A stretch of DNA of 64,000 nucleotides, taken from assembly GCA_965223845.1 (NCBI GenBank), contig CBDCXR010000004.1:864001-928000 (forward strand), written 5' to 3'. A program made the position numbers and the translations under genes. Positions 14,096-40,004 of this stretch are shown in pieces. This DNA is from Planctomycetota bacterium (GTDB lineage: Bacteria > Planctomycetota > UBA8108 > SXIK01). The notes beneath the pieces were generated by a model that was given only the letters and a program-made list of their open reading frames with translations, was not told where the DNA came from and did no database searches. Within the stretch, counting starts at the first letter, position 1, and every line of letters begins with the position of its first letter.

Positions 14096-14180
14096 ACCTC
14101 TAGATGGTGCGGGAGGGGGCTCTACCCTGACAAGCAGAACTCGCGCGTCGAAATAACGGCAAAACTCCGTCCCACGCCGG
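14093..14180 (-). promoter_or_regulatory. Leader conserved between paralogs A and B (copy A)
   Basis: + strand words AGATGGTGCGGGAG (14102), ACAAGCAGAAC (14130), AACGGC (14155) and CACGCC (14173) recur upstream of paralog B at nearly identical spacing. Confidence 0.6.
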
Positions 14181-14503
14181 CCGCGCTTCGGCGGCGGGAG
14201 GGCCACGAACCTCTGCCTACCTTCGAGGTCCCGGGCGGGCACGGGGGGATGGCACGGTGAGCCAGGAAGAGACCGCACGTCTCGGCTCGGCGCAGGATTC
14301 CGGCCTCGGCCAGGAACGGTTCCTCTCGGACGGCCCTCGCCGTCGCGAACCTTCGCCGATGGCTCTTGAATCGCCGCGAGTTCGCGTCGCCGCGCCGGCC
14401 GAGCTGCCTCCGCCCCCCGACTCCGAACCATGTCCCACGGCGGCGACGAACGAGGCGCGGTCGGCGGTCTTGGTCGCCGACTCTTTATCGCTTCCGGGTC
14501 GAT

Positions 14504-23474: not shown

Positions 23475-26398
23475 CGTTTTGCTCCGGTCGAATCGAGCTC
23501 GCCCGAAGGCTCCTCGAGTTGAGCAAAGGCGGTCGGCAAGTGGTCGACGCAGCGCTTGAACTCGGTCTGCACCTGGTCCAGAGCCGTCGCGGCTTCGTCG
23601 GCATTGTCGTTTCGGCTGTGATTCTCGAGCGATGCGGCGAAGTCGCGCAGGCACGGGGCCGAAATGCTCGCGGCGGCACCCTTGATCGAGTGGGCGTCTC
23701 GCGCGACGTTGTCGAAGTTGCCGTCGGCGACGTGTTGAGAGAGAGACTTCACGGATTCGGCGACCTTGACTTCGAACTTTTCGAGAACCTTGCGGCAGAA
23801 GGATCGATCCTTCATGCAGCGTTGAAACAGTTCGTGGAGCTCGATCGGGGGGGACGGCGGCGGCGTCGCGACGTCGCCGAATTCGTCGTCGGTTTCCGAA
23901 AACGTTTCGTCGACAACGAGAGAGGCTTCCTCTCTATCGGCTCTGCGGGAGGAAACCTCAACGAACTCGTCGTCGCGGAGATCGGGGTTCCGGCGGAGGA
24001 GGACGGATTCGACGACCTCGAGGAGGATCTCCTGATCGATCGGCTTGCTGACGTAGCGGTCCATTCCGGCGCTGAGGCAGAGCTCGCGATCTCCCCTGAT
24101 CGCGTTCGCCGTGAGAGCCACGATCGGGAGGCGTTCTCCGTCTTCTCGGTTGTCGGTCGGAACTTCGCCCCGAGCTTCGGCGGAGCGAATCGTGCGCGTC
24201 GCCTCGAATCCGTCCATTTCCGGCATCTGGCAATCCATGAACACCAGGTCGTACGGATTTGCGAGCACGGCTTGGACGGCTTCGATCCCGTTCGTGGCGA
24301 CGTCGCAGGTATAGCCAGAGTTGCGGAAGATCCCGCGAGCGACGAGTTGGTTCACCTCCTGGTCTTCGACGAGAAGGATTCGGAATCGACGTCGAGCCTC
24401 GCGGCGGGCGTTCGGAGCGTTTCGGCGGAAGCTGCCGAGTCGTCCGATCTTCGGCGGTGATTTCGCCAGTGTGGTGGCCCGGCGTAGAGCCTCGAACAGA
24501 TCTGACTCGCGGAGCGGCTTGCTCAGACGCGCGACGATCCCGAGGTCCCGAGCCGACTGCTTCGCCGCTTCATCGTCGACGGAAGTGAGAAGGATCACTC
24601 GCGTCGAGGCGGTTGCCGGGGTCTTGCGAATCTCCCGCGCCACCTCGAGGCCGTCCATTTCGGGCATCTGTCGGTCGAGGAGGGCGAGTCGGAATGGCTC
24701 GCCTCGGGACGCCGCGGCGCGCAAGTGTTCCAGTCCCTCGGCGCCGGACTCCACCGCGACCGGTTCCATCGACCAGGAGCGGAGCTGCGCCGACAGAATC
24801 TCGCGATTCGTTGCATTATCGTCCACGACGATCACCGGCAGGCCCTCGAGCTCGCCGTGCGGCTCCCCGGCCGCCTCCGTACCGTCGGCGGTCGCACTGT
24901 CGGTTCCACGCTCCAGCGAGAGATCGAACCAGAAGCGCGACCCTCGCCCTTCGACGCTTTCGACGCCGATCGAACCGCCCATCAGGGTGATGATTCGCTT
25001 CGAGATCGCCAGTCCGAGTCCAGTACCACCGTAGCGCCGGGTCATGGAAGCGTCGACTTGATGAAACGACTGGAACAGGGCGTCGACGCGTTGTTCGGGG
25101 ATTCCGATCCCCGTGTCGCTGACCTCGCAGTGTAGCTTGACTTCCTTCTCGTCGACGGATTCCGCGCGGACTTTGACGACGACCTCGCCCTCCTCCGTGA
25201 ACTTCACGGCGTTGTTCACGAGGTTGGCGAACACCTGCCGGATGCGGTCTCGATCGCCAATCAGAATCTTGGGGACCTCGGGCGCCACATAGCAAACGAG
25301 CTCAACGTTTCTCTCGGCAGTCTGCTTCGAAAACGACGCCGTGACATCTTCCACGAGGCAGCGAAAGGGGAACGGGATGGACTCGAACTCCATCTTGCCG
25401 GCTTCGATCTTCGAGAAGTCGAGGATGTCATTCAGAAGCTTCATGAGCGAGTCGGCCGACGACATCGCAATCTGCGCGTAGCGCTGTTGCTTCGGCGTGA
25501 GGGACGTCCGAAGGAGGAGCTGGACCATGCCGAGGACTCCGTTCATCGGCGTGCGGATCTCGTGGCTCATGCTGGCGAGAAACTCGCTCTTCGCGCGGTT
25601 GGCGGCCTCCGCGGCGTCCTTCGCCAACTCCAGCTCGCAAGTGCGATCCCCGATCTGTGACTGGAGTGTCGCGCTGAACTCGCGGAGCTCGCGATCGCGA
25701 TCCTGTACGGCTTGCCGCATGGTCTCGAACCCCGCCGCGAGGTTGCCCAGCTCATCGCTGCGTGAATCCTCGATCGGGTGGTCGAAGTCGTTGTGTGAAA
25801 TGCGGAGCGCAGCTTCGGAGAGCCGATCCAAGCGCCGAGTCCAGGAGCCGATGAGGAGGAGGATGATCGGGGCCACGACGAGCGTCGTGACGGTGAGCAT
25901 GAACACCGTGTGAATCGCGAAATCCCGCTGGGCCGCGTGCACGGGCTCTAGCGAGATGCCGGCGACGACTCGGCCGAGAGATTCACGCCTCGGCTTCGGG
26001 CCCGTCGAGAGGGTGGCGGGACCGCCGGTTTCGACGAGCGAGTTGCCGATGACGACTTCGTCGCGCGTGGTTTCCGGACTTCGTTCGAACCGGTCCCAGA
26101 GCGTAGGACTCTGCGTGGCTCGATTGACCAACTGGTCTTCCGAATCGTATACCGCGACGAAGAGTACATGCTCTTCGTCGGAGTAGCGCTCGAGGATCCG
26201 GTCGATCTCGTCGATGTCTCCGACCGAAAGCGGGAGCTCGCACATGCGCGCAACGCTGTTGGCGAGCGAGTCGACGAGTCGACCCTGGTGACTCTCGATG
26301 ACGCGATACGCCCGTCGAACGACGATCGTCGACATCAGCACGAGCGAAGCCGTGACGATGAGTAGCACCAGAAAAAGAGCTTTCTGTCGTAGGTTCAT
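23471..26398 (-). CDS. Hybrid sensor histidine kinase (TM-sensor-TM-HAMP-HisKA-HATPase-REC-REC-Hpt)
   Basis: [33 protein letters not shown]; two receivers (LLDRQMP, FMDCQMP); AHSIKGAA Hpt. Confidence 0.93.
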
Positions 26399-26405
26399 AG
26401 ACGAC

Positions 26406-27374
26406 TCAGCGGTTGCCGGTGACCCGGAATGCCGCCTCTTTGAGCACCTTCGGAGGGAGCTTGATCCTCAAGCGGTCCGCGACGATTTCATTGACGCCGT
26501 ACGCGAGCTTCGCCTGCCGGTGGGGGAGCTCTTTGGGCTCGGACGAAGACGGGTGCTCGGCGAGCGCCCTATGACAGAGATCGGCGAGAACCTCGCCCTG
26601 ACTGGCGGGGTCGACTCCGACTCCGATCAGCGCGCCGGCCTTGACCGAGGGGGCCGAGAATCCGAAGACCGGGATGCTGTTTCGTACGCTTTGAAGAAGA
26701 AGCGCGCGGAAGGAGGCGAGGGTGATGACGTCCTCGTCGTGCGCGGTCCAGATGATATCGGGCCGACGGCGGATCAGCGCCTGGATCGCCGGCGCGACGT
26801 TGTCATGAACGTCGATGTCCTCGGCGAGAAGCTTCCAGTTTTTCGGAAGCGCGTTCCGAAGCCGTTCGACGATCGATCGACTCGGTGCTGAGGATCGACG
26901 GTAAAGTACGCCGACGCGCTTTGTTGTCGGAAGCGCCGTCGCGATGAGCTCGACGCGAGCCTCGATGGCCGTATCGGTACTGACTCCGAAGGTCTTCGGC
27001 CGCTCGGTGAGTCCGCGACGCTCCGGAGCTGCGACGAGGCAGTAGCCGAGGCGAGCCTCGTCGTCGAGGCGGTCGCGCAGTGCGACCGCGGCGCCGGTGC
27101 CGATCGCGACGTGAAGGGTATTCTCTGCCGCTTTTCCCAGCTCTGCCTCCTCGCTCTCGAGTGCGTCGGCGAGGATGGTCCTCGATGAGTGGCCGTGCTC
27201 ATCCAATTTCGCGCGAAGTCGTTGGTGCGCGATCTTGTAGGGGAGCGCTCGACTCGTCTGGACGATCACTACATCCCCGGCGTGGACGGGTCTCGCGACG
27301 AGACACCACGCCGCGAGTACGGCAAACATCCAGAGCCGCGGTCGCGTCCGCGAAATCGCCACAACGCCCCCCAT
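26406..27374 (-). CDS. Periplasmic ABC-type substrate-binding-like protein (no transporter adjacent)
   Basis: Signal peptide; VAIG, KRVGVLY, IPVFGFS..VKAGAL and N..A..L.I.LP patterns typical of the ABC_sub_bind family. Confidence 0.7.
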
Positions 27375-29509
27375 TACAGGCGCAACCGAAATTGAACGAA
27401 GACGGTTCGGCCGGGCGTCTCGTGAGAGCTGAACGCTCCGATCTGCTGCACGGAAAGAGCGGTTTCGTCGAACAGGTCATGGACGCCCACCGTCAGATCA
27501 AGGCGATCGTCGGCGAGTCGTTTGGTTACGGCGAGATCGACGCGGTGGAAATCGGAAACGCTCGCCCCTGAGCTTCCACTGTCTCGGTTCGTACGCGAGG
27601 TGTACTTGTAGTGGGCCGACGCCGAGAACCCGTGGGGAAGCGCCCATTGAACGCCGAGTCCGACCTTGTTTTTAGCGGGACGGAATCCACGCACGCTCTG
27701 GTCGGTCGCGTCGGGCGAAAAGTTGTTGTGAGCGTACCACGCCGAGATGAAGAGATCGCGCAGGCGGTACTCGAGCTCGACTTCACCACCGAAGGCATCG
27801 CCGCCGTTGATATTGTCGAACACGGCGAGGACGCGACCGAGTCCCAGCGGATCGGGGAGGTCGGCGAAACCGATCAAATCTTCGTAGCGCTGGTAGTAGA
27901 GGTTGACCCGTGCGGTGAGATCCGGCGTCAGCGCCCCCGAGTAGCCGGTCTCGAGCGAGTAAACCTCTTCGTGATCGAGGTCGTCGGACTCGAAGAGCTG
28001 GACACCGAAGGAGCCGGGCGGAAGCGGAGGACTCGGCAGCGGGAGGCGTTGGATTCTAGCCTCGCGCACTCCGAAGAGCGGCGCTCGAAACGCCTTCGCC
28101 GCCCCGATCCGCAACCGGTGGTTCTGCTCGTCGTCGACGGCGTAGAGAACCGAGACGCGGCCGGACCAATCGACCTTTGTTCCCGAGTACCAATCGGCTC
28201 TGAGCTGCGTCTCGAGAGCGAGGTCATCGTCGTCGGTCAGCTGCCAGCGGTGGATGCCGAAGATCCCGGCCCAAAACTCGTTTTCGGTACCGCGGTCGAG
28301 AAAGTCCTGGGGCTGTTCGAGGCCGTGCTCGATGTGGACCCAACGTGCGTTTCCGCCGACGGTGAGATGATGCGGGGAGAGTTCGAGATCGACCTGTGCC
28401 TCGAGATCGTTCTCGTACTCCTCGAATCCCCAGATCGACGGCCGGGAGACATCGGCGAAGTTGCCGAACCACTGAACGTAGCCCGTCCAATCGTCGGCCT
28501 CGCGCGTCATGCGAGCGTGTAGCCGAGCGACATCGATTCGCTCGTCGTCACGGGGATCGCCCAGCATCGGGAAGCCGGCGATTTCGAAGTCACCGCGTTC
28601 GACGTGAGCGAACGCCGCGCCGAAATCGAGCGTGTCGCGATCGTTCACCTCGTAGAGGAGCTTCGAGCTGAGACGCCAGTCTTCGCTGAAGTCACGAGAC
28701 GAAAAGTCGTCGTGCGAGATCGCTTCGTCGGACGATTCTCGCGATTCGTATCCTGCCGACACGGACCACGCCCAACGGCCGTTCACTCCCGCCCAGCGCG
28801 AATTCGTGAGAATGTCGCCGAACTCGGTCACGCGGGTGAGTGTGCTCAGGCCGGTCGTTTCACGTGGCGCCTTCGTGATGATGTTGATGACGCCGTTCAG
28901 TGCGTTCGGACCCCACGCCGCGCCGCCCGGCCCGCGGACGATTTCGATTTGGGCGATGTCGTCGGGAAAAATCGGAAGGCGGAAGAAGTCGACGCCACCG
29001 TACGTCGCAGAGGTCGCGTTACGGCCGTCGATGAGGACGAGAGTCCGATCGGAGAACTGGTGGTGGAGGCCGCGGACGCCGAGCGCGACGTTATTGCGAT
29101 CGGTCGCGAGGACGTCGACTCCCGGGGTGAACTGAAGGATTTCCGGAACGGTCGAGAGGCCGGATTCCCGGATCGTCGACGCGTCGACGATCCCGATGGC
29201 GAGCGAGGACTCGGCGCGCCGCTGCTCCTTTCGAGAGGCGCTGACGACGACCGGGATGGGCTCGAAGAGGAGGAGCTCCTCGCTCCCGAACGAGGTATCG
29301 AGGGCGTCGTTGCCGAGGGGAGAGGCATCGCTCGTCTCGGCCTTTCCGGCCAGAAGATCGGAGCCGTCGGCGTCGTTGACGAGAAGCGCGAGCGATCGCT
29401 CCTGCGCGCAGATGACGCCAGTAGCGAAAACCAGATGCGCCAGAAGCAACGTACAGCGAAGCGGAGAGCGCTCGCCTCCGCGAACGGTGGTGCGGGACGG
29501 ATGGGCCAT
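27374..29509 (-). CDS. TonB-dependent receptor
   Basis: Plug motifs VVSASR, PEILQFTPGV, GVRG, TLVLIDGR, IEIVRGPG.A.WG.NALNGVINIITK; C-terminal PGRTVFVQFRLRL beta-signal. Confidence 0.92.
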   Translation of the reverse strand: MAHPSRTTVRGGERSPLRCTLLLAHLVFATGVICAQERSLALLVNDADGSDLLAGKAETSDASPLGNDALDTSFGSEELLLFEPIPVVVSASRKEQRRAESSLAIGIVDASTIRESGLSTVPEILQFTPGVDVLATDRNNVALGVRGLHHQFSDRTLVLIDGRNATSATYGGVDFFRLPIFPDDIAQIEIVRGPGGAAWGPNALNGVINIITKAPRETTGLSTLTRVTEFGDILTNSRWAGVNGRWAWSVSAGYESRESSDEAISHDDFSSRDFSEDWRLSSKLLYEVNDRDTLDFGAAFAHVERGDFEIAGFPMLGDPRDDERIDVARLHARMTREADDWTGYVQWFGNFADVSRPSIWGFEEYENDLEAQVDLELSPHHLTVGGNARWVHIEHGLEQPQDFLDRGTENEFWAGIFGIHRWQLTDDDDLALETQLRADWYSGTKVDWSGRVSVLYAVDDEQNHRLRIGAAKAFRAPLFGVREARIQRLPLPSPPLPPGSFGVQLFESDDLDHEEVYSLETGYSGALTPDLTARVNLYYQRYEDLIGFADLPDPLGLGRVLAVFDNINGGDAFGGEVELEYRLRDLFISAWYAHNNFSPDATDQSVRGFRPAKNKVGLGVQWALPHGFSASAHYKYTSRTNRDSGSSGASVSDFHRVDLAVTKRLADDRLDLTVGVHDLFDETALSVQQIGAFSSHETPGRTVFVQFRLRL

Positions 29510-29586
29510 GGCGGAGAACACTGGGGGGAGAGGATCGGCCTCGTCCGCGAGCGGACGGAGGGCACGAGAAGTGAAACCGGACGCGG

Positions 29587-30003
29587 TCAGGCCGAGGCGC
29601 TCTCGGTCTCGTTCACGTCGTTTCTGGTTCGCTTGCCCCAGAATTCTTCGATCTTCGCGAGCAGCTCGTCGTGGTTGAACGGCTTCGTAACGTAGTCGTC
29701 CGCGCCCGCCTCGAGACCGGCCTTCCGCTCCTCGGCCATAGCCTTCCCCGAGACGAATATGATCGTCGTGTCGGCGTGCTCCGGTTGCGCGCGGAGCTGA
29801 CGACAGACTTCGAAACCGTCGAGGTGCGGCATCATCACGTCGAGAAGAATCACGTCCGGCTTGATTTGCGGAACCTGCTCGAGTGCCTCCTGCCCGGACG
29901 CGGCCGTCCAGATCTCGAACTCTTCGAGGAGCTCTTCGAGGATCATGCGATTGCGCGGTTCGTCGTCGACGATGAGGATGCGCGGTGAATCTTGGGACAC
30001 CAT
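29587..30003 (-). CDS. Single-domain response regulator receiver
   Basis: ILIVDD, LLDVMMP, ADDYVTKPF. Confidence 0.9.
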   Translation of the reverse strand: MVSQDSPRILIVDDEPRNRMILEELLEEFEIWTAASGQEALEQVPQIKPDVILLDVMMPHLDGFEVCRQLRAQPEHADTTIIFVSGKAMAEERKAGLEAGADDYVTKPFNHDELLAKIEEFWGKRTRNDVNETESASA

Positions 30004-30006
30004 GGT

Positions 30007-31875
30007 TCAGTCAGTCTCCACTGTGCTCGTGGACTCCTGCGCTTCGACGGAAGCTGCGACCGTTTCGTTGGTCGGCGTCACTTTGGCCGCGGCTCGGGGT
30101 TGCATGCGCGGAATCGAGAACGTAAAGATCGCTCCACCACCCGGACGGTTGGCCGCGCGAATCCAACCGTGGTGCGCGTCCACGATCTCCTTACAGATCG
30201 ACAATCCGAGGCCGGTTCCCCCAGCCCCGGAATCGGTCTTCTGGCTTTGGGCGAACGGATCGAAGATCGTCTCGATCTCTTCCTCGGGGATTCCGAATCC
30301 CTCGTCGGAAACCGAGAGCTCGATACTCGGCCGTACTTCGTCGTCGACGTCGATGCTTCCTTCCGAAAAGGACATCGTGATCGTTCGCTCGGGATCGGTG
30401 AACTTGACCGCGTTCGAAAGAAGGTTCCGTGCGACTTGTGCGATGCGGAACGAGTCGAAATCGGCTTCGGTACTGAACGCCGCCGGAAGCACGGCGGTGC
30501 GCAGGTTCTTTTTTCGGATCAAGGGGTCGAGCTCGGAGAGCACCGATTGAAGGACCGTTTGGAGGTTTCCGGCCCTCATCGTGTAGGTCATCTTTCCGGC
30601 CTGTGCCTTCGAGAGATCGAGAAGGTTGTTGAGGAGCTGCATCAGGTTCTCACCGCTGGATCGAATCTCACGGAAGTACCCGAGCAGTCGGTCCTTCGAG
30701 GCTTTCTCGATCTTTTTCACACCGAACTCTGCGAAGCTCAGAACCGCGTGCATCGGCGTTCGCAGCTCGTGCGACATATTTGCGAGGAAGCGAGACTTCG
30801 CCCGCGCGGCCGCCTGCGCCTCCTCCATGCTTTCGCGAAGCTCGCGGGTTCGCCGGGCCACTTTCTCTTCGATAATTCGATTGGTCGCCTCGAGCTCTTC
30901 GTTCTTCCGGCGCACTTCGTCGCGCGACTTCTTGAGGAGAAGGACCATATTGCTGAGCTGCGAATTGGTCTCCTCGAGGTCGGTGATATCGTCGAACGTC
31001 GTCAGCGTGCCGCGCGACCGCCCTGACTCGTCGGGGATCGGGGAGCTGTTGACGACGTATCTACGGGTCGGACCGTCCTTGTGCCGCAGCGACAACTGAG
31101 CACCGCGCATGGTACGCCCGGACTCGAAGGCTTCGTCCCACGGGTACTTCGTCGCCCCGGGGGTTGCGTGAACCCAAGGAAGCGTCGCGAGGGATTGTCC
31201 GATGAGTGAGTTCGGAGATTGGCCGAGTTGCTCAGCGATCGCCGAGTTCGCGAGCACGATCAAGCCGCGCTCGTCCATGAGCACGACCCCTTCGACTAGG
31301 GTGTCGAGTGCGTAGCGCACACGCCCGGGAACGACCGAGGACGGATCGAGTTGCCGCAGAGTCTTGCGGATGAACTGAAAATAACAGAAGAAACCGACGA
31401 GTCCGACGAAGCCCATGGTGCGAATGATCGGACGGCTGAGCAGTCCTTGAAGCCCCTCAGGAAAGAGCGCCGAGAACTGCACCTCAACAGCGCCCCAGCG
31501 ATTGGGGCCCTTGAAGATCGGAACTTGCGCGTGAGTCGAGGTCGATCGCTCGGTGTCGTCGTTCGTCCATACCTCCTCGTGGGCGCCGGCCTTGGCGAGG
31601 ATGGTTCCGTCTGCGGTGCGCATCGCCGCCGAGAGCACGTCTTCATTCCGGCGGACGAGCGTCTGCATCGTTCGCTGGATCGCTTCGGTGTCTCCGCGCG
31701 AGATCGCCGACGAGAACTGGACCGCGAGCGATTCGCACAGCTTCTTCCTCGCGTCGAGTAGGACGTTCGCGGGATTCGGAATCACTCCGACGACGTCACC
31801 GACGACGATGATGCTCGCCGTGAGGAGCGCGAGTCCGAGGCTCAGGCGGAACGCGGGCGTGAGAAAGAAACGCAT
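30007..31875 (-). CDS. Membrane sensor histidine kinase with periplasmic domain and PAS
   Basis: Two TM segments, PAS (ALDTLVEGVVLMD...TFDDIT), FLANMSHELRTP, NAVKFT, DEGFG, GGTGLGL; start trimmed to MRFFLTP. Confidence 0.92.
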   Translation of the reverse strand: MRFFLTPAFRLSLGLALLTASIIVVGDVVGVIPNPANVLLDARKKLCESLAVQFSSAISRGDTEAIQRTMQTLVRRNEDVLSAAMRTADGTILAKAGAHEEVWTNDDTERSTSTHAQVPIFKGPNRWGAVEVQFSALFPEGLQGLLSRPIIRTMGFVGLVGFFCYFQFIRKTLRQLDPSSVVPGRVRYALDTLVEGVVLMDERGLIVLANSAIAEQLGQSPNSLIGQSLATLPWVHATPGATKYPWDEAFESGRTMRGAQLSLRHKDGPTRRYVVNSSPIPDESGRSRGTLTTFDDITDLEETNSQLSNMVLLLKKSRDEVRRKNEELEATNRIIEEKVARRTRELRESMEEAQAAARAKSRFLANMSHELRTPMHAVLSFAEFGVKKIEKASKDRLLGYFREIRSSGENLMQLLNNLLDLSKAQAGKMTYTMRAGNLQTVLQSVLSELDPLIRKKNLRTAVLPAAFSTEADFDSFRIAQVARNLLSNAVKFTDPERTITMSFSEGSIDVDDEVRPSIELSVSDEGFGIPEEEIETIFDPFAQSQKTDSGAGGTGLGLSICKEIVDAHHGWIRAANRPGGGAIFTFSIPRMQPRAAAKVTPTNETVAASVEAQESTSTVETD

Positions 31876-32302
31876 GGAGGGGGATTCGGTAGTCGGGGGG
31901 GACTGATCGCCCGTTTCGCTCCACCGGAGCGACCGATTCTCGGGTCGATCCCGGCGCAGAAATCGAGAGTCCGCGGGAGCGGACGAACGGGAGGGTCTCT
32001 CTATTCCATCGTTCGGTCGAGCTGTCGTCTGATCGGATGAATCCAAAAAGGACGATATCGGTAGCTCGTCGCTCGCAGACCACCGTCTCGGACCGGACTG
32101 CTTCCCGTCTTCGGCGGTGAGGTTCTGTCAAGAACTTGTCCAGCGGTGCCGAGTACATCCCTACCCATCGCTCGAGACGCACGGGGTCGGCGTCTGGCGC
32201 GCGGAGATTCCGCGATCGAGCTCTCTCCCTCACGCACCTTCGCGATTCGTACGCGCTCGGCGACCGCCGGGCGACTCGCGCACACGAAACGGAGTCTCCC
32301 GA

Positions 32303-32554
32303 ATGGGTTCCATCTACGTTCAAGACCCTTCTCCGAGCGCCGGTCTACGACCCGTCTCCGACCGGATCGCGGGACTCTGCCGCGCGGTTTCCGACGAGCG
32401 GATGTTCCTCGTCGTCAGCGAAGACGAGGAGGGACTCGATCCCCCGGTGATCGTCGAGGCGATTCTCACTCAGGACGGAGTCGTCGTGCGGTCGCATGCC
32501 GTCGACGTCTCGGACGAGTTCGACCTCGAGGATCCTTCCCTCGACGCGAACTGA
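32303..32554 (+). CDS. Small acidic hypothetical protein (83 aa)
   Basis: MGSIYVQD...DEFDLEDPSLDAN; genome-typical codons (GTC, GAC, GAG); ends 19 nt before the next gene; weak RBS. Confidence 0.45.
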   Translation: MGSIYVQDPSPSAGLRPVSDRIAGLCRAVSDERMFLVVSEDEEGLDPPVIVEAILTQDGVVVRSHAVDVSDEFDLEDPSLDAN

Positions 32555-32573
32555 AGCCGGAGTCATTCATCCC

Positions 32574-34070
32574 ATGGATCCGACGCCATCTGCCGCTCCC
32601 GAAGCGACCGAAGGGGCGACCTCGACCGTCGCTGCTTCGACTCATCCGGCTACTGCGGCAACGGCGGTCGCCGCGAACGCAGCCGCCATGTCGGCGCGCC
32701 TGAAGGCCGTGCTGTCGCTTTTGGCGACCTCACTTCAGCACGAACGTTTCGAGGCTGCGATCACCGCGTTCGTCACCGATCTCGCGATCCGAACGCGATG
32801 CGATCGAGTGAGTCTCGGCTTCGTGCACCGCCGGCAGGTTCGCATTCGCGCGATGTCACACACGGCGCACTTCGTGAAGAACGCCGGGCTCGTCCAGGCA
32901 GTCGAGTCGGCGATGGAAGAAAGCATCGACCAGGAAGCGACCGTCAACTTTCCTGCCGCAGCCGAAGCGGAGGGGACGGCGTTCCGCATCACGCGTCTTC
33001 ACGATGAGCTCGGTCGCCGGTACGGCTCGAGCTCGATCTGCTCGATTCCGTTTTTCATGAACGGCGAGCTCCTCGGTGTGCTCACTCTCGAGCGCTCCGC
33101 CGCGCCGCCGTTCGACACGGAGATCATCGAGCTTCTCGAAGCGGCGATGAACATGGCCGGGCCGCTCCTCCACCTCAAGCGACGCGAGGAGATGACTCTC
33201 ATCGGCCGGTCGGTCGAATCGACGCGTTGGCTCCTCGGCCGAACGCTCGGACCGGGGCATCTCAAGTGGAAGATCGCTTGCCTCCTCGTCGCCGGGCTGA
33301 CCGTCTTTCTCTGCTTCGCGAAGGCCGAGTACAAAATCGCTTCGCGTGCGATCGTCGAGGGGGCGATCCAGCAGGCTGCGGTCGCACCGTTCGACGGCTA
33401 CATCAAGTCGGCCCGGTTCCGCGCCGGCGACGTCGTCGAGTCGGGACAGGTGCTCTGCGAGCTGGACGATCGAGAGTACCGGCTCGAGCATCTCAAGTGG
33501 AAGAGCAAGCACGAGCAGATGTCGAAGCAGCACCAGCAAGCCTTGGCGCAGCTCGACGCCGCTCAGATCAAGATCATCGCCGCTCAAATCGAACAAGCTC
33601 AGGCCCAGATTCATCTGACCGAAGCCCACCTCGAGCGCACGCAGATCGAAGCTCCGTTCCCGGGAGTCGTCGTCGCGGGCGATCTCAGCCAGTCGATCGG
33701 CGCTCCCGTCCAGCGGGGAGACGTGCTCTTCGAGATCGCTCCGCTCGATCGTTATCGGCTCGTTCTGCACGTCGACGAACGCGATATCGGCGAAGTGGCG
33801 CTCGGACAGTCCGGCGACATCGTGCTGGCCGCGCTGCCGGGTGAACCGCACCCCTTCGTCGTCGAGAAGGTGACGCCGATCTCGTCGACTGCCGACGGGC
33901 TCAACTACTTCCGAGTCGAGGCGTCTCTCTCAGGCCGCGCCGACGCACGCGTCCGCCCGGGCATGGAGGGCGTGGCGAAGGTTCGGCTCGACCGCCGGCA
34001 CCTCGTGTGGATCTGGACGCACAAAACGATCGACTGGGTGCGGATCACGCTTTGGCACTGGCTGCCCTAG
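32574..34070 (+). CDS. GAF-domain + HlyD/membrane-fusion adaptor protein
   Basis: GAF (CDRVSLG, AMEESIDQ, SIPF..NGELLGVLTLE), TM helix, lipoyl halves (APFDGYI...GDVVESGQVL; APFPGVV...GDVLFEI), coiled coil, RPGMEG. Confidence 0.88.
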   Translation: MDPTPSAAPEATEGATSTVAASTHPATAATAVAANAAAMSARLKAVLSLLATSLQHERFEAAITAFVTDLAIRTRCDRVSLGFVHRRQVRIRAMSHTAHFVKNAGLVQAVESAMEESIDQEATVNFPAAAEAEGTAFRITRLHDELGRRYGSSSICSIPFFMNGELLGVLTLERSAAPPFDTEIIELLEAAMNMAGPLLHLKRREEMTLIGRSVESTRWLLGRTLGPGHLKWKIACLLVAGLTVFLCFAKAEYKIASRAIVEGAIQQAAVAPFDGYIKSARFRAGDVVESGQVLCELDDREYRLEHLKWKSKHEQMSKQHQQALAQLDAAQIKIIAAQIEQAQAQIHLTEAHLERTQIEAPFPGVVVAGDLSQSIGAPVQRGDVLFEIAPLDRYRLVLHVDERDIGEVALGQSGDIVLAALPGEPHPFVVEKVTPISSTADGLNYFRVEASLSGRADARVRPGMEGVAKVRLDRRHLVWIWTHKTIDWVRITLWHWLP

Positions 34071-34109
34071 CTGCCGCCTCGACCGGCGACGCGAAGGAGA
34101 GGATCGAAC

Positions 34110-36257
34110 TTGAACGATCGATGGCTCAGCTCGTCCTGGTACCGGGTCGCCCGGCTGACGCCGAAGCTCCGCACGCAGGCGAGGATCCACCGTCACCTCT
34201 ATCGCGGGGAGCCTGCGTACATCCTGCAAAACGAAGCGAGCGGGCGTCACTACCGTTTCGACGCCGCGACCTACGAGTTGCTCGCGCTCTTCGATGGCCG
34301 ACGCACCGTCGAAGAGGCATGGGAGCTCGCGTGTGAACGCCTGGGCGACGACGCGCCCACCCAAGACCGATGCATCCGGCTCCTCTCTCAGCTTCACGCT
34401 GCCGATGTCCTGCAGTGTGACGTCCCGCCGGACGCACTCGAGGTCGTCGGACGCGGCGATCGCGGTCGCCATCGGGCCACGCTGCATCGGTGGGCGAATC
34501 CGTTCAGCGTGCGCGTACCGCTGTTCGATCCGGACGCTCTTCTCCGCCGCCTTCTTCCCGCCGTGCGACCGCTCTTCAGTCGGTACGCGTTCGTCCTCTG
34601 GCTCGTGGTCGTGCTGTGGGCGATCGGCCTCGCGACTTTCCACTGGGCGGAGCTGACCCACAACATCGCGGACCGCGTCCTTTCCTGGGAAGGACTCGCG
34701 ATCCTCGCGGCGGCGTTCGTCGCACTCAAGATCGTCCACGAATTCGCGCACGCGTTCGCCGTCAAGGTGTTTGGCGGCGAGGTCCACGACATGGGGATCA
34801 TGTTCCTCGTGTTCGCGCCGATTCCGTATGTCGATGCCTCGGCATCGACGGCGTTCCGCTCGCGGCGCCGTCGATTCATCGTCGGCGCGGCGGGGATGAT
34901 GGCAGAGCTCGGAATCGCGTCCGTCGCTCTCGCCTTTTGGACGTACGCCGAGCCGGGCCTCGCGCGCAGCCTCGCTTTCGGAATCGTGCTCGTCGCGGGA
35001 GTTTCGACGTTCTTCTTCAATGCGAATCCCCTGATTCGATTCGACGGCTACTACATGCTCTGCGACGCGCTCGAGATTCCGAACCTCAACTCGAGGGGAC
35101 GCGAGTATCTCGTCTATCTCGTCGAGCGCTACGCATTCGGTGTGCGCGGTCTCGAGACAAACGCGAACACGTGGTCGGAACGCTTTTGGTACGTCGGGTA
35201 CTCGATCACCTCTTGGATCTACCGCTTTTTCCTCTACGCCGCGATCCTGGTCTTCGTCGCCGGAAAGTTCTTCTACATCGGAACGGCGCTCGCACTCTGG
35301 GGGGTGGGAACGTGGCTCGTTGTCCCCGCAGTCCGTCTCTGTCGCTACCTCCAGACTCAGCCGCGCATCGCCGCAGTTCGTCGTCGGGCGGTCATCGTGA
35401 GCGGCGCGGCCGTGCTTTTCGTCATCGGAGCGACATGCTGGACTCGAGCTCCCCTCCGCACGACGACCGAAGGAGTCGTGTGGGTGCCGGAGGAGGCGAT
35501 CGTCCGCGCGAACGCGAGCGGGTTCGTCGCAAAGATCGTCGCGAAGCCCGGCACGCGCGTCGAGAAGGGAGACCCGATCTTCGTGTGCGAGGACCCGACG
35601 ATCGACTTTCGCATCGCCCTCCTCGAAGCCGAATTGAGCGAATATCGCGCGCGGCGCGAGGGTGTGTGGGGAGTGGATCAGGTCGCCGCAAAGATGTACG
35701 ACGAAGAGATCGCCTTCCGGGAGAAGCGGCTCGCGCGTGAACGCGAGCGGCGGCGCGATCTCACCGTGCGGAGCCGCGCGGCCGGAATCGTCGTCGTCCC
35801 GCGAGCCGAGGATCTGCCGGGACGGTTCGCACGTCAGGGAGAGGTGCTCGCACACGTTCTCGACGAATCCACACCGACGATCCGCGCGGTGGTTTCGGAG
35901 GATCATATCGACCTCGTGCGATCGGCTATGGGGCGGGTCGAAGTCCAGCTCGCCGGAGGAATCGCCGAGCCGATGGAGGCGAAGGTGGCGCGAGAGATTC
36001 CCGCGGCGAGCCGCGAGCTACCGAGCACCGTCCTCGGGCTCGAAGGCGGAGGGACGATCGCGACGGATCCGCGCGACGAGAGGGGCGTTCAGTCGTTCGA
36101 GCAATATTTTCAGATCGAGCTCGCGCTTCTCGGGACGAAACCCGGACTCAACATCGGCCGGCGCGCGTTCGTGCGGTTCGACCACGGTTCCGAGCCGCTC
36201 GCCGTCCGTTGGTACCGAAGTGTTCGGCGCCTCTTCCTCCGCCATCTGGGCACTTGA
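34110..36257 (+). CDS. PqqD/RRE-like domain + M50 intramembrane metallopeptidase + HlyD-like adaptor fusion
   Basis: N-terminal FDGRRTVEEAW...LLSQL; HEFAH zinc motif; NANPLIRFDGYY (NxxPxxxxDG); C-terminal lipoyl/coiled-coil adaptor. TTG start with AAGGAG upstream. Confidence 0.88.
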   Translation: MNDRWLSSSWYRVARLTPKLRTQARIHRHLYRGEPAYILQNEASGRHYRFDAATYELLALFDGRRTVEEAWELACERLGDDAPTQDRCIRLLSQLHAADVLQCDVPPDALEVVGRGDRGRHRATLHRWANPFSVRVPLFDPDALLRRLLPAVRPLFSRYAFVLWLVVVLWAIGLATFHWAELTHNIADRVLSWEGLAILAAAFVALKIVHEFAHAFAVKVFGGEVHDMGIMFLVFAPIPYVDASASTAFRSRRRRFIVGAAGMMAELGIASVALAFWTYAEPGLARSLAFGIVLVAGVSTFFFNANPLIRFDGYYMLCDALEIPNLNSRGREYLVYLVERYAFGVRGLETNANTWSERFWYVGYSITSWIYRFFLYAAILVFVAGKFFYIGTALALWGVGTWLVVPAVRLCRYLQTQPRIAAVRRRAVIVSGAAVLFVIGATCWTRAPLRTTTEGVVWVPEEAIVRANASGFVAKIVAKPGTRVEKGDPIFVCEDPTIDFRIALLEAELSEYRARREGVWGVDQVAAKMYDEEIAFREKRLARERERRRDLTVRSRAAGIVVVPRAEDLPGRFARQGEVLAHVLDESTPTIRAVVSEDHIDLVRSAMGRVEVQLAGGIAEPMEAKVAREIPAASRELPSTVLGLEGGGTIATDPRDERGVQSFEQYFQIELALLGTKPGLNIGRRAFVRFDHGSEPLAVRWYRSVRRLFLRHLGT

Positions 36258-36267
36258 GGTCCGAGCG

Positions 36268-38268
36268 ATGTCCGATCGCGTGATCATGCGCCTCCGATCC
36301 GCGGAGGCGACCCGTTTCGCCCGCGATGAGATTAGGCCGGGTGCCCGACTCGAGTGGTCGCAGCTCGTACGCTCGCGCGCTTCGGGTCGTCGGCCTCAGG
36401 GAAGGGGAGCCGCTCGATTCCTCCGCGCCGTAGCCGCCTCGGAGCGTGTAGCGCGCGACCTCGACGACGAGACGCTCGCCCGCGAAGCGAGACGCCTGCG
36501 CGAAGTCCTGCGCCGACGCGGCATAGCACGCGACAGCGCCGCGCTTTCCTTCGGGCTCGTCCGCGCCGCCGCCGAGCGTACGATTCGCCAGCGGCACTAC
36601 GATGTCCAGGTTCTCGGCGGTTGGACTCTCCTCCAAGGTCGCATCGCAGAGATGGAGACCGGCGAGGGGAAGACGCTCACCGCGACTCTAGCGGGCGGCA
36701 CGGCTGCGCTCGCGGGAATCTCCGTCCACGTCATCACGGTCAACGACTATCTGGCGCGCCGCGACGCCGAGGCGATGGGGCCGATCTACCGCGCACTCGG
36801 TCTGACGGTGGGCGTCATCGTCGCCGGGATGGAGCCGGCGGAGCGTCGGCGAGCGTACGCATGCGACGTAACCTACTGCACAAACAAAGAGATCGTGTTC
36901 GACTACCTGCGGGACTGCGTGGCGTCGCGGCGCGCGGCGAGCCCACTTCACGAGAAAGTCGAATCACTCGCGCGCGGCGGAGCGGCCTCACGGCTCATCG
37001 CCTCGGGACTTCAGTTCGCAATCGTCGACGAAGCTGACAGCGTCCTCGTCGACGACGCGAAGACGCCGCTCATTCTCTCCGAAACGGTGCCGAATCACCG
37101 CGAGCGCGAAGTCTACTCGACCGCGATCGACATCGCGCGACAGCTCAGTGAGGGTTCCGACTATCGCGTCGATCGAAAGCTCCGAAGCGTCGTACTGACT
37201 TCACGCGGTTCACGGCGCGTTGAGCGGTTCGTCGATGCGATTCCTCGAGGTCGCAGGGGGATTTGGATGCACCGCCGCCAGCGGAGCGAGCTCATCGCGC
37301 AGGCCCTCGCGGCGGTCCACCTCTACGAACGAGACAAGCACTACCTCGTCCGTGAGGACGAGATCGACATCATCGACGAATACACCGGAAGAACTCTTCC
37401 CGATCGCGCCTGGGAGCACGGGCTTCACCAGGCGATCGAGGCGAAGGAAGGATGCCCACTGAGTTCGGAGCGACAACCGATCGCTCGGCTGACGTACCAG
37501 CGCTTCTTTCGGCGGTACACATGGCTTTCGGGAATGACCGGAACCGCGCAGGAAGTCGCCGGTGAGCTCGCCGGCGTCTACGACGTCGTCACCGTGCGCG
37601 TTCCGACCCACCAACCCGTCCGTCGCGAGTCGAGGGGAGTGCGCGTATTCAGGACCGCGGAGGAGAAGTGGGAGGCCGTCGTCGGCCGCATTCAAGAGAT
37701 GCGCGAGCGTCTGCGCCCCGTCCTCGTCGGAACTCGGTTTCTTTCGGACTCGGAGCACTTGAGCGCACTCCTCAAGGCGGCCGCGATCCCGCATCAGGTG
37801 CTGAATGCGAACTGCCACGAGGATGAAGCCGAGATCGTCGCCCGGGCGGGCGAGCTCGAGAGGGTGACCGTTGCGACGAACATGGCCGGACGGGGAACGG
37901 ACATTCGGCTTCCCGGTGACGTGGTGGTTCGCGGGGGACTCCACGTGATCGCCGCGGACGTCAACGAAGCCCGCCGGATCGACCGCCAGCTCTACGGCCG
38001 CGGGGGCCGCCAAGGGGATCCAGGGACCTTCGAGGGGATCTTCTCGCTCGAAGATGAATTGATCCGCACCTACGCCTCGGGGTGGGCTCGGTGGCTCGCC
38101 GCCAAAGCCGGTCGGCTCGGTGAGCCGATCCATCGATTGGCGGGGGAGTGGATCGTGCGGGAAGCGCAAACTCGCTGCGAGCGACACCACCGGCGCATCC
38201 GTCGGAACATGCTGCAGCGGGAAGGAGATTTGGAGACGACACTCGCGTTCGCCGGAGCGGGCGAGTGA
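36268..38268 (+). CDS. Secondary SecA-like ATPase (SecA_DEAD paralog, 666 aa, C-terminally truncated)
   Basis: EMETGEGKT, VHVITVNDYLARRD, FDYLRD, IVDEAD, LHQAIEAKE, GMTGT, PVLVGT, VATNMAGRGTDI and RRIDRQLYGRGGRQGDPG; ends shortly after the start of the helical scaffold. Confidence 0.92.
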   Translation: MSDRVIMRLRSAEATRFARDEIRPGARLEWSQLVRSRASGRRPQGRGAARFLRAVAASERVARDLDDETLAREARRLREVLRRRGIARDSAALSFGLVRAAAERTIRQRHYDVQVLGGWTLLQGRIAEMETGEGKTLTATLAGGTAALAGISVHVITVNDYLARRDAEAMGPIYRALGLTVGVIVAGMEPAERRRAYACDVTYCTNKEIVFDYLRDCVASRRAASPLHEKVESLARGGAASRLIASGLQFAIVDEADSVLVDDAKTPLILSETVPNHREREVYSTAIDIARQLSEGSDYRVDRKLRSVVLTSRGSRRVERFVDAIPRGRRGIWMHRRQRSELIAQALAAVHLYERDKHYLVREDEIDIIDEYTGRTLPDRAWEHGLHQAIEAKEGCPLSSERQPIARLTYQRFFRRYTWLSGMTGTAQEVAGELAGVYDVVTVRVPTHQPVRRESRGVRVFRTAEEKWEAVVGRIQEMRERLRPVLVGTRFLSDSEHLSALLKAAAIPHQVLNANCHEDEAEIVARAGELERVTVATNMAGRGTDIRLPGDVVVRGGLHVIAADVNEARRIDRQLYGRGGRQGDPGTFEGIFSLEDELIRTYASGWARWLAAKAGRLGEPIHRLAGEWIVREAQTRCERHHRRIRRNMLQREGDLETTLAFAGAGE

Positions 38269-38316
38269 GAGTCCTTCGCCGAGAAACTCTCGGCTAGAGT
38301 CGAGGAGCACCGGATC

Positions 38317-39162
38317 ATGAAGAAACGAACCCTCATCGTCGCGGCGGTCCTGATGACCGCAGCGTTTCTCCCTGCGAACGAGCCGAACGGAGAACCGGAG
38401 GCTTCGCGTCCCGTCCGGATCGAGGCGTTCGAGGGGCTCATCGAGGCGAATCGCATCCTGAAGCTCGGATCGTCTGTCGACGGAGTGATCAGCGAAGTCC
38501 GGGTCGAGCGCGGAGATCTCGTCAAAGCCGGAGATGTGATCGCCCAGCTCGACACTCGCGTGGAGAAAGCCGAAGTGGCTCTCGCGAAGGCGCGCGCCGA
38601 GTCGGAAGGTGCCCTCAAGAAAAGGAAGGCGCGACTCGCATTCGGCCGGAGTAAGTACAAGAACGATCTCGAGCTCCACCGGACTGGGATTCTCTCGGAC
38701 GAACTGCTCGATCAAAGCCGCACCGAGCTCGCTCTCGCGGAGGCGGAGTTCATCGAAGCGGAGGAAACCGCACAGCTCGCTCAGCTCGCGTACAAGCAAG
38801 CGCTCGCCGCTCTCGAATTGCGCACGATTCGGAGTCCCGTCGACGCCGTCGTCGTCGAACGGTACCTCTCGCCCGGGGAGACGGTGACGCGTCAGTCGCA
38901 GTCGCACATCGTCCAGCTCGCCCAGGTCGATCCCCTCAAGGTGGAGATCATCCTTCCGGCGCTCATGTTCGGAAACGTCAAGGCCGGCGATCGAGCGACG
39001 GTCCGCACTCAGTTCGAGCCGAATCGCTCCTACCCGGCCGAAGTGGTTCAAGTCGACCGCGTCGTCGACGCTGCGAGTGGAACGTTCCGTGTTCGGCTTC
39101 GCATGGACAACCCGAACAACGAAGTGCCGTCCGGGCTCAAGTGCTCGGTGCTGCTCGACTGA
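38317..39162 (+). CDS. RND-type periplasmic adaptor (membrane fusion protein)
   Basis: N-terminal hydrophobic segment; VERGDLVKAGDVIAQLD, IRSPVDAVV, VVDAASGTF, SGLKC. Confidence 0.9.
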   Translation: MKKRTLIVAAVLMTAAFLPANEPNGEPEASRPVRIEAFEGLIEANRILKLGSSVDGVISEVRVERGDLVKAGDVIAQLDTRVEKAEVALAKARAESEGALKKRKARLAFGRSKYKNDLELHRTGILSDELLDQSRTELALAEAEFIEAEETAQLAQLAYKQALAALELRTIRSPVDAVVVERYLSPGETVTRQSQSHIVQLAQVDPLKVEIILPALMFGNVKAGDRATVRTQFEPNRSYPAEVVQVDRVVDAASGTFRVRLRMDNPNNEVPSGLKCSVLLD

Positions 39163-39167
39163 GCGGG

Positions 39168-40004
39168 TCAGTCGACCGGCGCCGATGCGGATTCCGCCTC
39201 ACTCGAGGGCGTCGGCGCCGGATGCTTCCCGTCGACATCGCGATCGGGATCCCGCTTCTCTTTGCGCTCGGCGAGAGTCGCGAGATGGAGTCGGGCCACG
39301 TGCCACATGTACCGGGGGCCGTAGCCGGCTCTCGGCGCCCAGCGATTGCGCGTCGCGCGGCGGAGGTGCGCTTTCGCCGCCGGAATACGGTTTTCCGTCG
39401 ACGCGAGGAGCCCGGCGTAGAGCTCGCCGTAGAAGCGCTGCTTCTCGCGTTCGGCCGGCGCGAGATCCGCCGCTTCGATCCCGCGGAGGAGTGCCTCCGC
39501 GCTGAGCTTACCCTGGAACATGCGGTACACCTCGGGTAGCGGTGCTCGATCGGGCTTCTCGTAGTCGATCAGGCGCTTCCGCGCCTTCTCGATTCCCTCC
39601 ACCCGCGCTTGCGCTAGAAAGCGCCAGATTCCGTTCTCGCGATCGACAGTGTCGAACTCGTGGTAGAGGCCGAACTGGGCGGCAGACTCTCGAAAGCGCT
39701 CGCAATAGTACTGGGCGATTCCCCGGCGCCAGTGAGATCGCGCGGCCGCGGGGCGGAGGCGCACCATCGCCTCGTAGTCGTCCAGCGCGGCGCGAAACTT
39801 GCCGGAGAAGAAGTGAACGTCGCCGCGTCGAGAGTAAAGATCGACGCGCTCGGGTTCGCGTTCTATCGCCGCGGAAAGGGCGGCGATGCGCTCGGCGAGC
39901 TGTGCCTTATCGACCGCGCTCGACGCGTCCGGCGGTGGACGATCCTCGGCGATCGCGGGAGCGGCGAGCGCACCCGCGAGGACCGCCGTGAAAATGTGTC
40001 GCAC
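39168..40004 (-). CDS. Exported TPR protein (NlpI-like)
   Basis: Signal peptide; YSRRGDVHF, WRRGIAQYY, ENGIW, FYGELY.GL, YMWHVARLH. Confidence 0.75.
   Translation of the reverse strand: MRHIFTAVLAGALAAPAIAEDRPPPDASSAVDKAQLAERIAALSAAIEREPERVDLYSRRGDVHFFSGKFRAALDDYEAMVRLRPAAARSHWRRGIAQYYCERFRESAAQFGLYHEFDTVDRENGIWRFLAQARVEGIEKARKRLIDYEKPDRAPLPEVYRMFQGKLSAEALLRGIEAADLAPAEREKQRFYGELYAGLLASTENRIPAAKAHLRRATRNRWAPRAGYGPRYMWHVARLHLATLAERKEKRDPDRDVDGKHPAPTPSSEAESASAPVD

Follow-up and report, generated by a model that had tools for sequence, protein, structure and literature searches.

A short SecA paralogue, an M50 protease-adaptor fusion and two further adaptors as the putative core of an export machine for LEPR-XLL-tagged proteins in a planctomycete

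Contig CBDCXR010000004.1 of a member of the Planctomycetota (assembly GCA_965223845.1, hereafter genome G000; 7.9 Mb, approximately 65% G+C, completeness 91.7%) carries an operon of four genes, g1 to g4, within a stretch of 64,000 nucleotides that we refer to as the window (G000:C4:864001-928000; coordinates are relative to the window unless given as G000:C4). The genes lie on the plus strand with intergenic gaps of 39, 10 and 48 nt. As a sequence-only reading of the window had described them, they are closely spaced and co-directional and, according to Pfam and NCBIfam, encode a GAF-HlyD adaptor (g1), a PqqD/M50/HlyD fusion (g2; its PqqD and M50 matches fall below the Pfam cut-offs), a SecA-like ATPase (g3) and a free periplasmic adaptor of the membrane fusion protein (MFP) type (g4). 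We propose that this operon constitutes the inner-membrane and periplasmic core of a dedicated machine for the processing and export of proteins that carry an N-terminal LEPR-XLL tag, a reading to which we assign a probability of about 0.55. Judged by gene content, the operon belongs with very high confidence to the module of ‘secondary SecA_DEAD’ proteins described by Kamneva, Poudel and Ward (PLoS One 2015; PMC4452313): the genome encodes a second SecA_DEAD protein beside a canonical SecA, and genes for M50/HlyD, GAF/HlyD and HlyD/biotin_lipoyl proteins adjoin it in the same direction.

In the mechanism that we propose, the cytoplasmic PqqD/RRE-like domain of g2 would capture the tag and the M50 core of the same protein, in which the zinc-binding motifs are intact, would clip it. 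The truncated SecA, which has kept its ATPase motifs and its PPXD polypeptide clamp, would push the chain from the N- to the C-terminus at the expense of ATP, whilst the adaptor domains of g1, g2 and g4 would form a periplasmic duct leading to a TolC-type channel encoded elsewhere, and the GAF domain of g1 may gate the machine on a small ligand. In G000 the predicted sole client is an open reading frame (ORF) of 11,600 codons. The fuller claim, that the module represents a distinct secretion system independent of ATP-binding cassette (ABC) transporters, in which the truncated SecA threads tagged clients N-terminus first via the M50/adaptor assembly to a TolC-type channel and the M50 protease removes the tag, with one client in this genome, is put forward tentatively, as a little short of an even chance. 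The combination of an N-terminal signal and an N-to-C motor would allow export to begin before synthesis of the 11,600-residue chain is finished, which is an argument for the mechanism and not evidence of it.

The LEPR-XLL tag is connected with the module by its distribution across genomes. The tag is described by the NCBIfam model NF012209, a 24-position N-terminal motif with a cut-off of 17 bits. G000 holds one module and one LEPR-XLL protein; its single match (33.7 and 29.5 bits) lies close to the beginning of the predicted client, which is the longest ORF that the genome contains, on the plus strand at G000:C4:6358265-6393067 (L110, L111), where the N-terminal tag is followed by DUF7948/SBBP-like sequence and tandem-95 repeats. 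Among 41 genomes (G000 and its 40 nearest relatives), the tag was present in G000, G003, G007, G012, G013, G016 and G021, and these seven are exactly the genomes that encode a strong M50 fusion (E <=1e-207). No LEPR-XLL match was found in G037, which possesses a distant M50-HlyD/GAF-HlyD pair and no SecA gene, nor in any of 14 control genomes. In two broader samples a genome was counted as M50-positive when it matched alignment A4 at E <=1e-50. For 201 genomes drawn evenly from the phylum of G000, LEPR-XLL occurred in 21 of the 55 M50-positive genomes and in 0 of the 146 M50-negative ones; for 151 genomes from the order of G042 (L041, Ramlibacter paludis), the corresponding figures were 18/30 and 1/121, the lone exception being a 23-codon frame at E 2e-4. 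When the M50-positive genomes were divided at E 1e-150, a boundary chosen after the data had been seen, the phylum had the tag in 19/23 of the strong and 2/32 of the weaker genomes, and the order in 18/21 and 0/9, respectively. The co-occurrence holds in two distant lineages and is patchy inside genera (for instance 1/10 in genus g5).

Physical proximity points in the same direction in several other genomes. In four genomes that contributed loci to the survey described below, a LEPR-XLL ORF of 4,673-13,956 codons lies within 6 kb and on the same strand of seven of the eight SecA paralogues. G003, a one-contig genome from the same family as G000, has an 8,711-codon LEPR-XLL ORF that starts 2.5 kb from g1 in divergent orientation, and the giant it encodes is 43% identical to the G000 giant over 731 residues, with 14 of 15 residues alike in the tags; giant and module are neighbours in G003 and apart in G000. 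An alignment of 14 N-termini from several lineages shows a short, strongly basic leader followed by L-E-x-L-E-P-R-x-L-L-S-A-D, in which the positions E, E, R, L, L, S and D are invariant. The tag stands at the extreme N-terminus, with the ATG of the G000 client 12 codons ahead of the motif, and none of the LEPR-XLL N-termini contains a long hydrophobic stretch of the Sec-signal type. In the planctomycete sample there are up to 14 matches in some genomes, and many of the tagged ORFs have between a few hundred and 2,000 codons, with the caveat that truncation is possible for short frames on fragmented contigs; a class of clients, and not giants alone, would therefore bear the tag. Taken together, we consider a functional link between the module and the LEPR-XLL proteins to be highly probable.

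The surroundings of the module in other genomes add to this picture. A search with g3 as the query retrieved 80 loci at 42-57% identity from many phyla, including Planctomycetia, Scalinduaceae, Desulfobulbaceae, Syntrophaceae, Geobacteraceae, Burkholderiales, Neisseriaceae, Magnetococcales, Thermodesulfovibrionia, Deferribacteres and others; Ramlibacter paludis, Vogesella mureinivorans and Zoogloea are among the cultured organisms represented. The M50 fusion immediately precedes the SecA paralogue, in the same orientation, in 62 of the 64 loci with at least 4.2 kb of upstream flank, and 60 of these loci also have the GAF-HlyD gene upstream (exceptions L033, L067, L076 and L078), such that the co-occurrence across genomes that the sequence-only reading had called for is indeed seen. 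A g4 homologue lies on the same strand within 400 nt in 34 of the 59 loci with at least 2.5 kb downstream, on the opposite strand within 2 kb in 14 and elsewhere in 4, and was not found in 7. Clustering of all locus ORFs of at least 100 aa identified a small protein of approximately 110 aa, DUF3467 (Pfam 2.8e-24 to 8.8e-26), whose gene is found no more than 1.5 kb upstream of g1 and in the same orientation in 44 of the 57 loci with enough flank, and at another position in 3 further loci (e.g. L016:1361-1693, L073:5513-5815; mean column identity 48% in 26 sequences); the planctomycete relatives examined yielded none. Large proteins are the other frequent neighbour: in 33 of the 42 loci with enough flank, the 2.5 kb upstream of g1 contain the end of an ORF of at least 900 aa. 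Most of these ORFs run off the fetched stretch, and examples carry Cadherin_4, Big_9, PKD, He_PIG, Laminin_G_3 or RTX repeats. Most non-planctomycete loci carry both DUF3467 and a giant repeat protein upstream of the module. The suggestion of the sequence-only reading to look for giant repeat proteins next to the SecA paralogue proved the most informative of its checks, the likely cargo being a class of LEPR-XLL-tagged proteins.

Two ideas that arose from these neighbours were set aside. DUF3467 had been considered as a SecB-like chaperone; its AlphaFold2 model, of poor quality (pLDDT 63.1), has a topology of four strands and a helix, Foldseek gave no match at E <=0.001, the best VIA-align Z was 3.4, a PDB profile search returned nothing, hhalign against four SecB sequences gave a probability of 0.4 and the ESM Atlas held nothing above 0.79, and the idea was dropped. 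Nor did a usable C-terminal signal shared by the giants emerge: the last 250 residues cluster in 20 of 43 module-adjacent giants, and the short motifs that they contain (L023-L087) are lineage-specific, not common across lineages and unusable as a query against G000.

The adaptor domains of the module and the absence of the usual pump components beside them bear on whether it exports protein by itself. The g1 gene (32496-34070, +; 524 aa), identified with the aid of Pfam, a hydropathy scan and synteny, encodes a GAF domain at residues 86-221 (nt 32751-33158; Pfam GAF 1.5e-08), a single hydrophobic span at residues 256-279 (nt 33261-33332; hydropathy scan) and a periplasmic HlyD/MFP part at residues ~290-503 (nt 33363-34004; HlyD_3 1.9e-18, HlyD_D23 2.7e-15); with the NCBIfam model RND_mfp it scores 85.9 bits, under the cut-off of 94.9. 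Its start had been placed at 32303 in the sequence-only reading, but the ATG at that position opens a short ORF of 83 codons (32303-32554, +) that is read in a different frame, overlaps the start of g1, matches no Pfam family and is probably not a gene; similarity to g1 homologues is first seen at 32697. Three proteobacterial or unclassified homologues that were scanned (L016:1712-3646, L041:5772-7700, L073:5825-7693) possess about 190 additional residues N-terminal to the GAF domain, with no Pfam match, and this extension is absent from the g1 of the window and of G021 (L097). The g4 gene (38317-39162, +) encodes a free adaptor of 281 aa with a hydrophobic N-terminus, which passes RND_mfp at 127.3 bits against the same cut-off and matches HlyD_3 (6.6e-20), HlyD_D23 (2.3e-17) and Biotin_lipoyl_2 (7.6e-10). 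The HlyD_3 cut-off is passed in g1, g2 and g4, and the type_I_hlyD model TIGR01843 gave 60.7 and 40.1 bits, far under its cut-off of 208.65.

No pump accompanies these adaptors in the window, as the sequence-only reading had noted: ABC_tran (PF00005) has 58 matches genome-wide, ACR_tran 14 and OEP 18 (in about ten ORFs), and none of these lies within the window. The same reading would have been undone by an ABC ATPase consistently present in homologous loci; ABC-like ORFs, which combine Walker A with an LSGGQ-type signature, are seen in 3 of the 80 loci. All are 240-379 aa long, and at least two of them are situated kilobases away from the module. A lead for the outer-membrane channel is an orphan TolC-family OEP gene of 595 aa at G000:C4:6263198-6264986 (+; L124:7199-8986), between parB and the gene of an M28-PDZ peptidase and with no gene for a pump or an adaptor in its vicinity. 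Within G000 it is what the TolC-like ORFs adjoining the module in L014, L019 and L054 match best, and it is named here as a candidate channel, as a lead only.

Several observations weigh against our proposal. The module and its predicted client are unlinked in G000, lying 5.4 Mb apart, and the neighbours of the client are unrelated housekeeping genes. One of the eight SecA paralogues in the four genomes mentioned above has no LEPR-XLL gene nearby, the tag was not matched in 4/23 and 3/21 of the strong M50-fusion genomes (with tiers defined post hoc), and related genomes are not independent, so that the co-occurrence counts overstate the support. No TolC gene adjoins the module in G000, and TolC-like ORFs were seen in 5 of the 80 loci by a phmmer search that is insensitive (three further ORFs cluster with one of these five). 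DUF3467 was not found in G000 (at 91.7% completeness), nor does anything similar adjoin the operon, so the machine may differ between lineages. M50 proteases are not known to act as channels. Our literature searches returned no later experimental work on the module and no demonstration of transport or cleavage.

In the main rival explanation the module serves processing or retention only: it would recognise the tag and clip or anchor it at the inner membrane, in the manner of a sorting or retention system, with the SecA paralogue as an unfoldase or holdase, and the giant would leave by another route, for example C-terminus first through an ABC-type type I system. RTX repeats are typical of cargo leaving C-terminus first via classical ABC-type type I systems. 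Such repeats (Pfam HemolysinCabind) are carried by some LEPR-XLL giants, including module-adjacent ones, and a Vibrio LEPR-XLL giant is reported to have C-terminal RTX and serralysin domains (PMC10868602). The intact catalytic motifs of the M50 core, the lack of an obvious pore-forming subunit in the module and the 58 ABC_tran matches elsewhere in the genome are also consistent with this explanation. On the other hand, it is hard to see why a module would have three MFP domains if there were no duct spanning the periplasm, the ABC-like ORFs are confined to 3 of 80 loci and are all small, and g3 retains the entire PPXD clamp. We therefore consider processing without export unlikely, at roughly one chance in five, and favour a machine that both processes and exports tagged proteins.

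The nature of the motor is indicated by the domains that g3 has kept and lost. The gene (36268-38268, +) encodes 666 aa comprising the first nucleotide-binding domain, the PPXD at residues ~280-391 (nt 37105-37440), the second nucleotide-binding domain and a stub of the scaffold helix. The Walker A motif GEGKT starts at residue 132 (nt 36661-36675), DEAD at residue 254 (nt 37027-37038) and GRGTD at residue 541 (nt 37888-37902). Pfam matches SecA_DEAD (1.2e-98), SecA_PP_bind (2.7e-28) and P-loop_SecA (9.2e-53) in this protein and neither SecA_SW nor SEC-C. The genome contains two PF07517 matches, g3 and an ORF of 1006 aa with SecA_SW and SEC-C, which confirms the separate full-length secA that the sequence-only reading required. 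In this housekeeping SecA the wing-and-scaffold domain (SecA_SW) occupies residues 707-931 and is accompanied by the SEC-C zinc motif. g3 is 43% identical to it over 619 residues in an alignment that ends at residue 736 of the longer protein, and g3 aligns to Thermotoga maritima SecA structures only to about residue 646 of chains of 822-871 residues; therefore g3 has the two nucleotide-binding domains and the polypeptide clamp, and its scaffold helix breaks off after the first turns. By the anatomy of SecA, g3 would lack the helical wing, the two-helix finger that inserts into SecY and the tail that binds SecB. The best 120 database matches of g3 have 573-714 residues, mostly 663, and where named are called ‘preprotein translocase subunit SecA’; the short length is, by these sequences, a family trait of the paralogue. 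Of 66 paralogue ORFs of 600-760 aa, taken from the window and the 80 loci, 55 carry GEGKT, 64 carry DE[AV]D and 60 carry GRGTD. In the relative G003, where g1, g2 and g4 are well preserved, the gene in the SecA position is much diverged (L093:17775-19499, +; 575 aa; 27-31% identical to g3) and matches SecA_DEAD only (100.6 bits).

Given this composition, a second alternative is an accessory Sec pathway, in which the short SecA would act on the housekeeping SecYEG in the manner of SecA2 and the adaptors would pass the proteins on. SecA2-type systems are known to export large adhesins in Gram positive bacteria, and g3 scores 430-534 bits on the SecA2 models. In 15 loci (within L072-L092, e.g. 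L073:12625-21836) from Neisseriaceae, Zoogloea, Comamonadaceae and Magnetococcales, a TpsB-type gene (POTRA_2 plus ShlB) lies directly downstream of g4, 14 of them also encode a TPS-domain protein of more than 2,300 residues, and such products use Sec. However, g3 falls below the cut-offs of all NCBIfam SecA and SecA2 models, by a wide margin for SecA2 (TIGR03714, 464.8 bits against 930; TIGR04221, 445.8 against 725; TIGR04397, 534.2 against 1085; NF012136, 429.9 against 1100) as well as for the housekeeping models TIGR00963 (597.9 against 800) and PRK12904 (619.1 against 814). The region without a SecA_SW or SEC-C match is the one that in SecA holds the wing and the SecY-engaging finger, the LEPR-XLL tag lacks a hydrophobic core of the Sec type, and the constant partner of the paralogue is an M50-adaptor fusion rather than SecY2. 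An accessory Sec function is in our view improbable, and we return to a truncated SecA that would work together with the M50/adaptor assembly.

The constant partner, g2, joins a recognition-type domain, a protease core and an adaptor in one protein of 715 aa (34110-36257, +; TTG start). Its N-terminal beta3-alpha3 domain spans residues ~21-100 (nt 34170-34409), the membrane core residues ~151-446, and the MFP domain residues 446-715 (nt 35445-36254), the last of these passing the HlyD_3 cut-off (1.4e-07, 32.6 bits). The Pfam matches to PqqD (0.0026, 18.5 bits) and Peptidase_M50 (1.3e-4, 21.8 bits) are below their cut-offs of 23.4 and 27.2. The M50 (site-2 protease) family is recognised by an HExxH motif in one membrane helix and a third zinc ligand in an NxxPxxxxDG-type motif in another. 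g2 contains HEFAH at residues 210-214 (nt 34737-34751) and NANPLIRFDG at residues 304-313 (nt 35019-35048), and it is because of these motifs and a structure model, the Pfam score being below cut-off, that we assign the core to M50. HExxH is present in 69 of 69 g2 homologues of at least 650 aa, in which the NxNPLxxxDG motif is also conserved, and H210, E211, H214, N304, N306, P307 and D312 are each at least 95% conserved in 67 aligned homologues; given this conservation of the zinc motifs, the protease is therefore probably active and not a dead scaffold.

The AlphaFold2 model of g2, built from 28 sequences (pLDDT 83.7), has a helical membrane core with a beta-hairpin following the HExxH helix, and a C-terminal part that resembles MexA, MacA and AcrA (Foldseek, ~1e-10; the whole model as query returned adaptors only). 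Its N-terminal domain (24-97), with strands at 24-31, 34-41 and 47-50 and helices at 52-59, 67-81 and 85-97, appears in the model to have the layout of PqqD-like recognition elements. A complex prediction of g2 residues 1-150 with a 60-residue LEPR-XLL tag gave a score of 0.18 (mark 0.32), which counts neither for nor against their association. Beyond the close homologues, weaker M50-fusion matches are common (32/201 and 9/151 genomes in the two samples described above), and more distant M50-HlyD fusions with 31-32% identity and no adjoining SecA gene are found in L098 (G037:C77) and at G021:C222:2405-4483. In L098 a GAF-HlyD gene adjoins the fusion, and a PilZ-domain gene adjoins the GAF-HlyD gene in turn.

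The architecture of g2 also invites a third explanation, that the module matures a small peptide in the fashion of ribosomally synthesised and post-translationally modified peptides (RiPPs), with PqqD/RRE and M50 acting as a leader peptidase and the adaptors exporting the product. The NCBIfam model daptide_HExxH (NF041824) matches g2 over residues 21-407 at 1.9e-46, in addition to the weak PqqD match; this hit to a leader-removing M50 protease also lends backing to the two Pfam assignments that fall below cut-off. The daptide score of 159 bits is nevertheless far under the equivalog cut-off of 300, and on these sequence grounds g2 is related to the daptide M50 protease and is not a member of that family. 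No precursor-like or modifying-enzyme family was seen among the recurrent clusters of ORFs of at least 100 aa, shorter ORFs lying outside the clustering; what recurs near the module is DUF3467 and giant proteins, there is the co-occurrence with LEPR-XLL proteins, and a short peptide would not be expected to need a SecA-type polypeptide motor. Peptide maturation is for these reasons very improbable.

The operon is flanked by a divergent PAS histidine kinase gene (30007-32046, -) and a convergent TPR gene (39168-40004, -); a simple scan of the operon found no promoter-like site, and terminator-like sites at the operon were no more frequent than in shuffled sequence. The kinase gene belongs to a signalling cluster at 23471-32046 (-) that further comprises a response regulator (29587-30003, -), a TonB-plug outer-membrane protein (27374-29521, -), an ABC_sub_bind protein (26406-27374, -) and a hybrid kinase with Hpt (23471-26398, -). 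In the relative G021 a PAS kinase gene immediately precedes g1 in the same orientation (L097:311-2107), and such a kinase may regulate the module. As a conserved partner it was considered and set aside: 11 loci contain kinase ORFs, at varied positions and clustering on generic domains, and G021 is the only case directly upstream. A last explanation, signalling by regulated intramembrane proteolysis or an accessory role in small-molecule efflux without protein export, could draw on the usual signalling role of site-2 proteases, the GAF sensor domain of g1 and the adjoining two-component cluster, but is the least probable of all, as there is neither an anti-sigma/sigma pair nearby nor a pump gene in the window and the tight link to a SecA motor and LEPR-XLL proteins would be left unexplained. 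Farther off in the window, two FG-GAP repeat proteins of approximately 1,400-1,500 aa (9911-14431 and 14504-18676, -) and a smaller one (6332-7648, -) are encoded. The two large ones were considered as cargo and rejected, being 14 kb away and on the other strand, with the sole LEPR-XLL match of the genome elsewhere.

If our proposal is correct, Gram negative bacteria of many phyla would possess a SecA-driven export route resembling a tripartite pump and serving some of the largest proteins known, and the LEPR-XLL tag and the module would form a pair of sorting signal and machine comparable to those of the numbered secretion systems. Database names such as ‘preprotein translocase subunit SecA’ and ‘HlyD family secretion protein’ hide what would be one joint system. 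The short and recognisable tag makes a family that was of unknown function in 2015 experimentally approachable, and G000 offers a case with one machine and one client.

The module is best compared first with its own earlier description. Kamneva, Poudel and Ward reported ‘secondary SecA_DEAD’ proteins in a conserved neighbourhood with three proteins bearing HlyD, a weak Peptidase_M50 and GAF, in the order GAF, M50, SecA_DEAD, HlyD in M. extorquens AM1 (META1p2402-2399), and proposed SecA_DEAD as the ATPase and the M50 protein as perhaps a membrane pore replacing the ABC transporter, whilst calling the function unknown; theirs was a computer analysis, and its main text reports neither transport nor cleavage (PMC4452313). 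The statement in the sequence-only reading that comparative genomics had placed such proteins next to type I secretion-related genes was accurate on this point. Its view of the operon as a non-canonical export machine holds as regards the absence of ABC genes, the co-occurrence and the second secA, whereas the SecA motor, the M50 conduit and the adaptor ring on TolC are still matters of interpretation and are not new, having been put forward in that paper. The interpretation is a reasonable one that was already published as a hypothesis in 2015. The G000 operon shares with the published module the same four proteins in the same order, the presence of Planctomycetes among the phyla, the lack of an ABC transporter and the hypothesis itself. 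It differs in that the main text of PMC4452313 contains no PqqD, DUF3467, cadherin or adhesin and names no cargo, and here a candidate cargo is encoded far from the module. A link of LEPR-XLL, DUF3467 or giant adhesins to the module was not found in the literature, supplements of PMC4452313 excepted, and LEPR-XLL itself is touched on only briefly, in two papers; the LEPR-XLL pairing is thus the part for which we found no precedent.

Among characterised systems, type I secretion (HlyB-HlyD-TolC, and LapBCE for giant RTX adhesins) resembles the module in its HlyD/MFP adaptors, a TolC that is here probably encoded elsewhere and a likely cargo of giant repeat proteins, and the peptidase-containing ABC exporters resemble it in the fusion of a leader peptidase to an inner-membrane component. 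The operon has the HlyD-family MFP of a type I system and no ABC transporter; its ATPase is of the SecA type, its peptidase is M50 and not C39, the proposed signal is N-terminal and not C-terminal, and there are three different adaptors instead of one. With the accessory SecA2 systems (SecA2/SecY2 of Gram positive bacteria and mycobacterial SecA2) the module has in common a second SecA and a special, often very large, surface clientele, but g3 ends inside the scaffold helix and stays below the SecA2 cut-offs, no adjoining SecY2 was seen, and the partners are adaptors and an M50 protease. Finally, the RRE-dependent M50 leader peptidases of RiPP clusters (the daptide protease NF041824; YydH/LiaK) share with g2 an N-terminal recognition-type domain followed by an HExxH intramembrane protease, whereas g2 scores below the family cut-off, is fused to a periplasmic adaptor, has a SecA motor as partner and would act on substrates that are likely to measure from hundreds to more than 10,000 residues.

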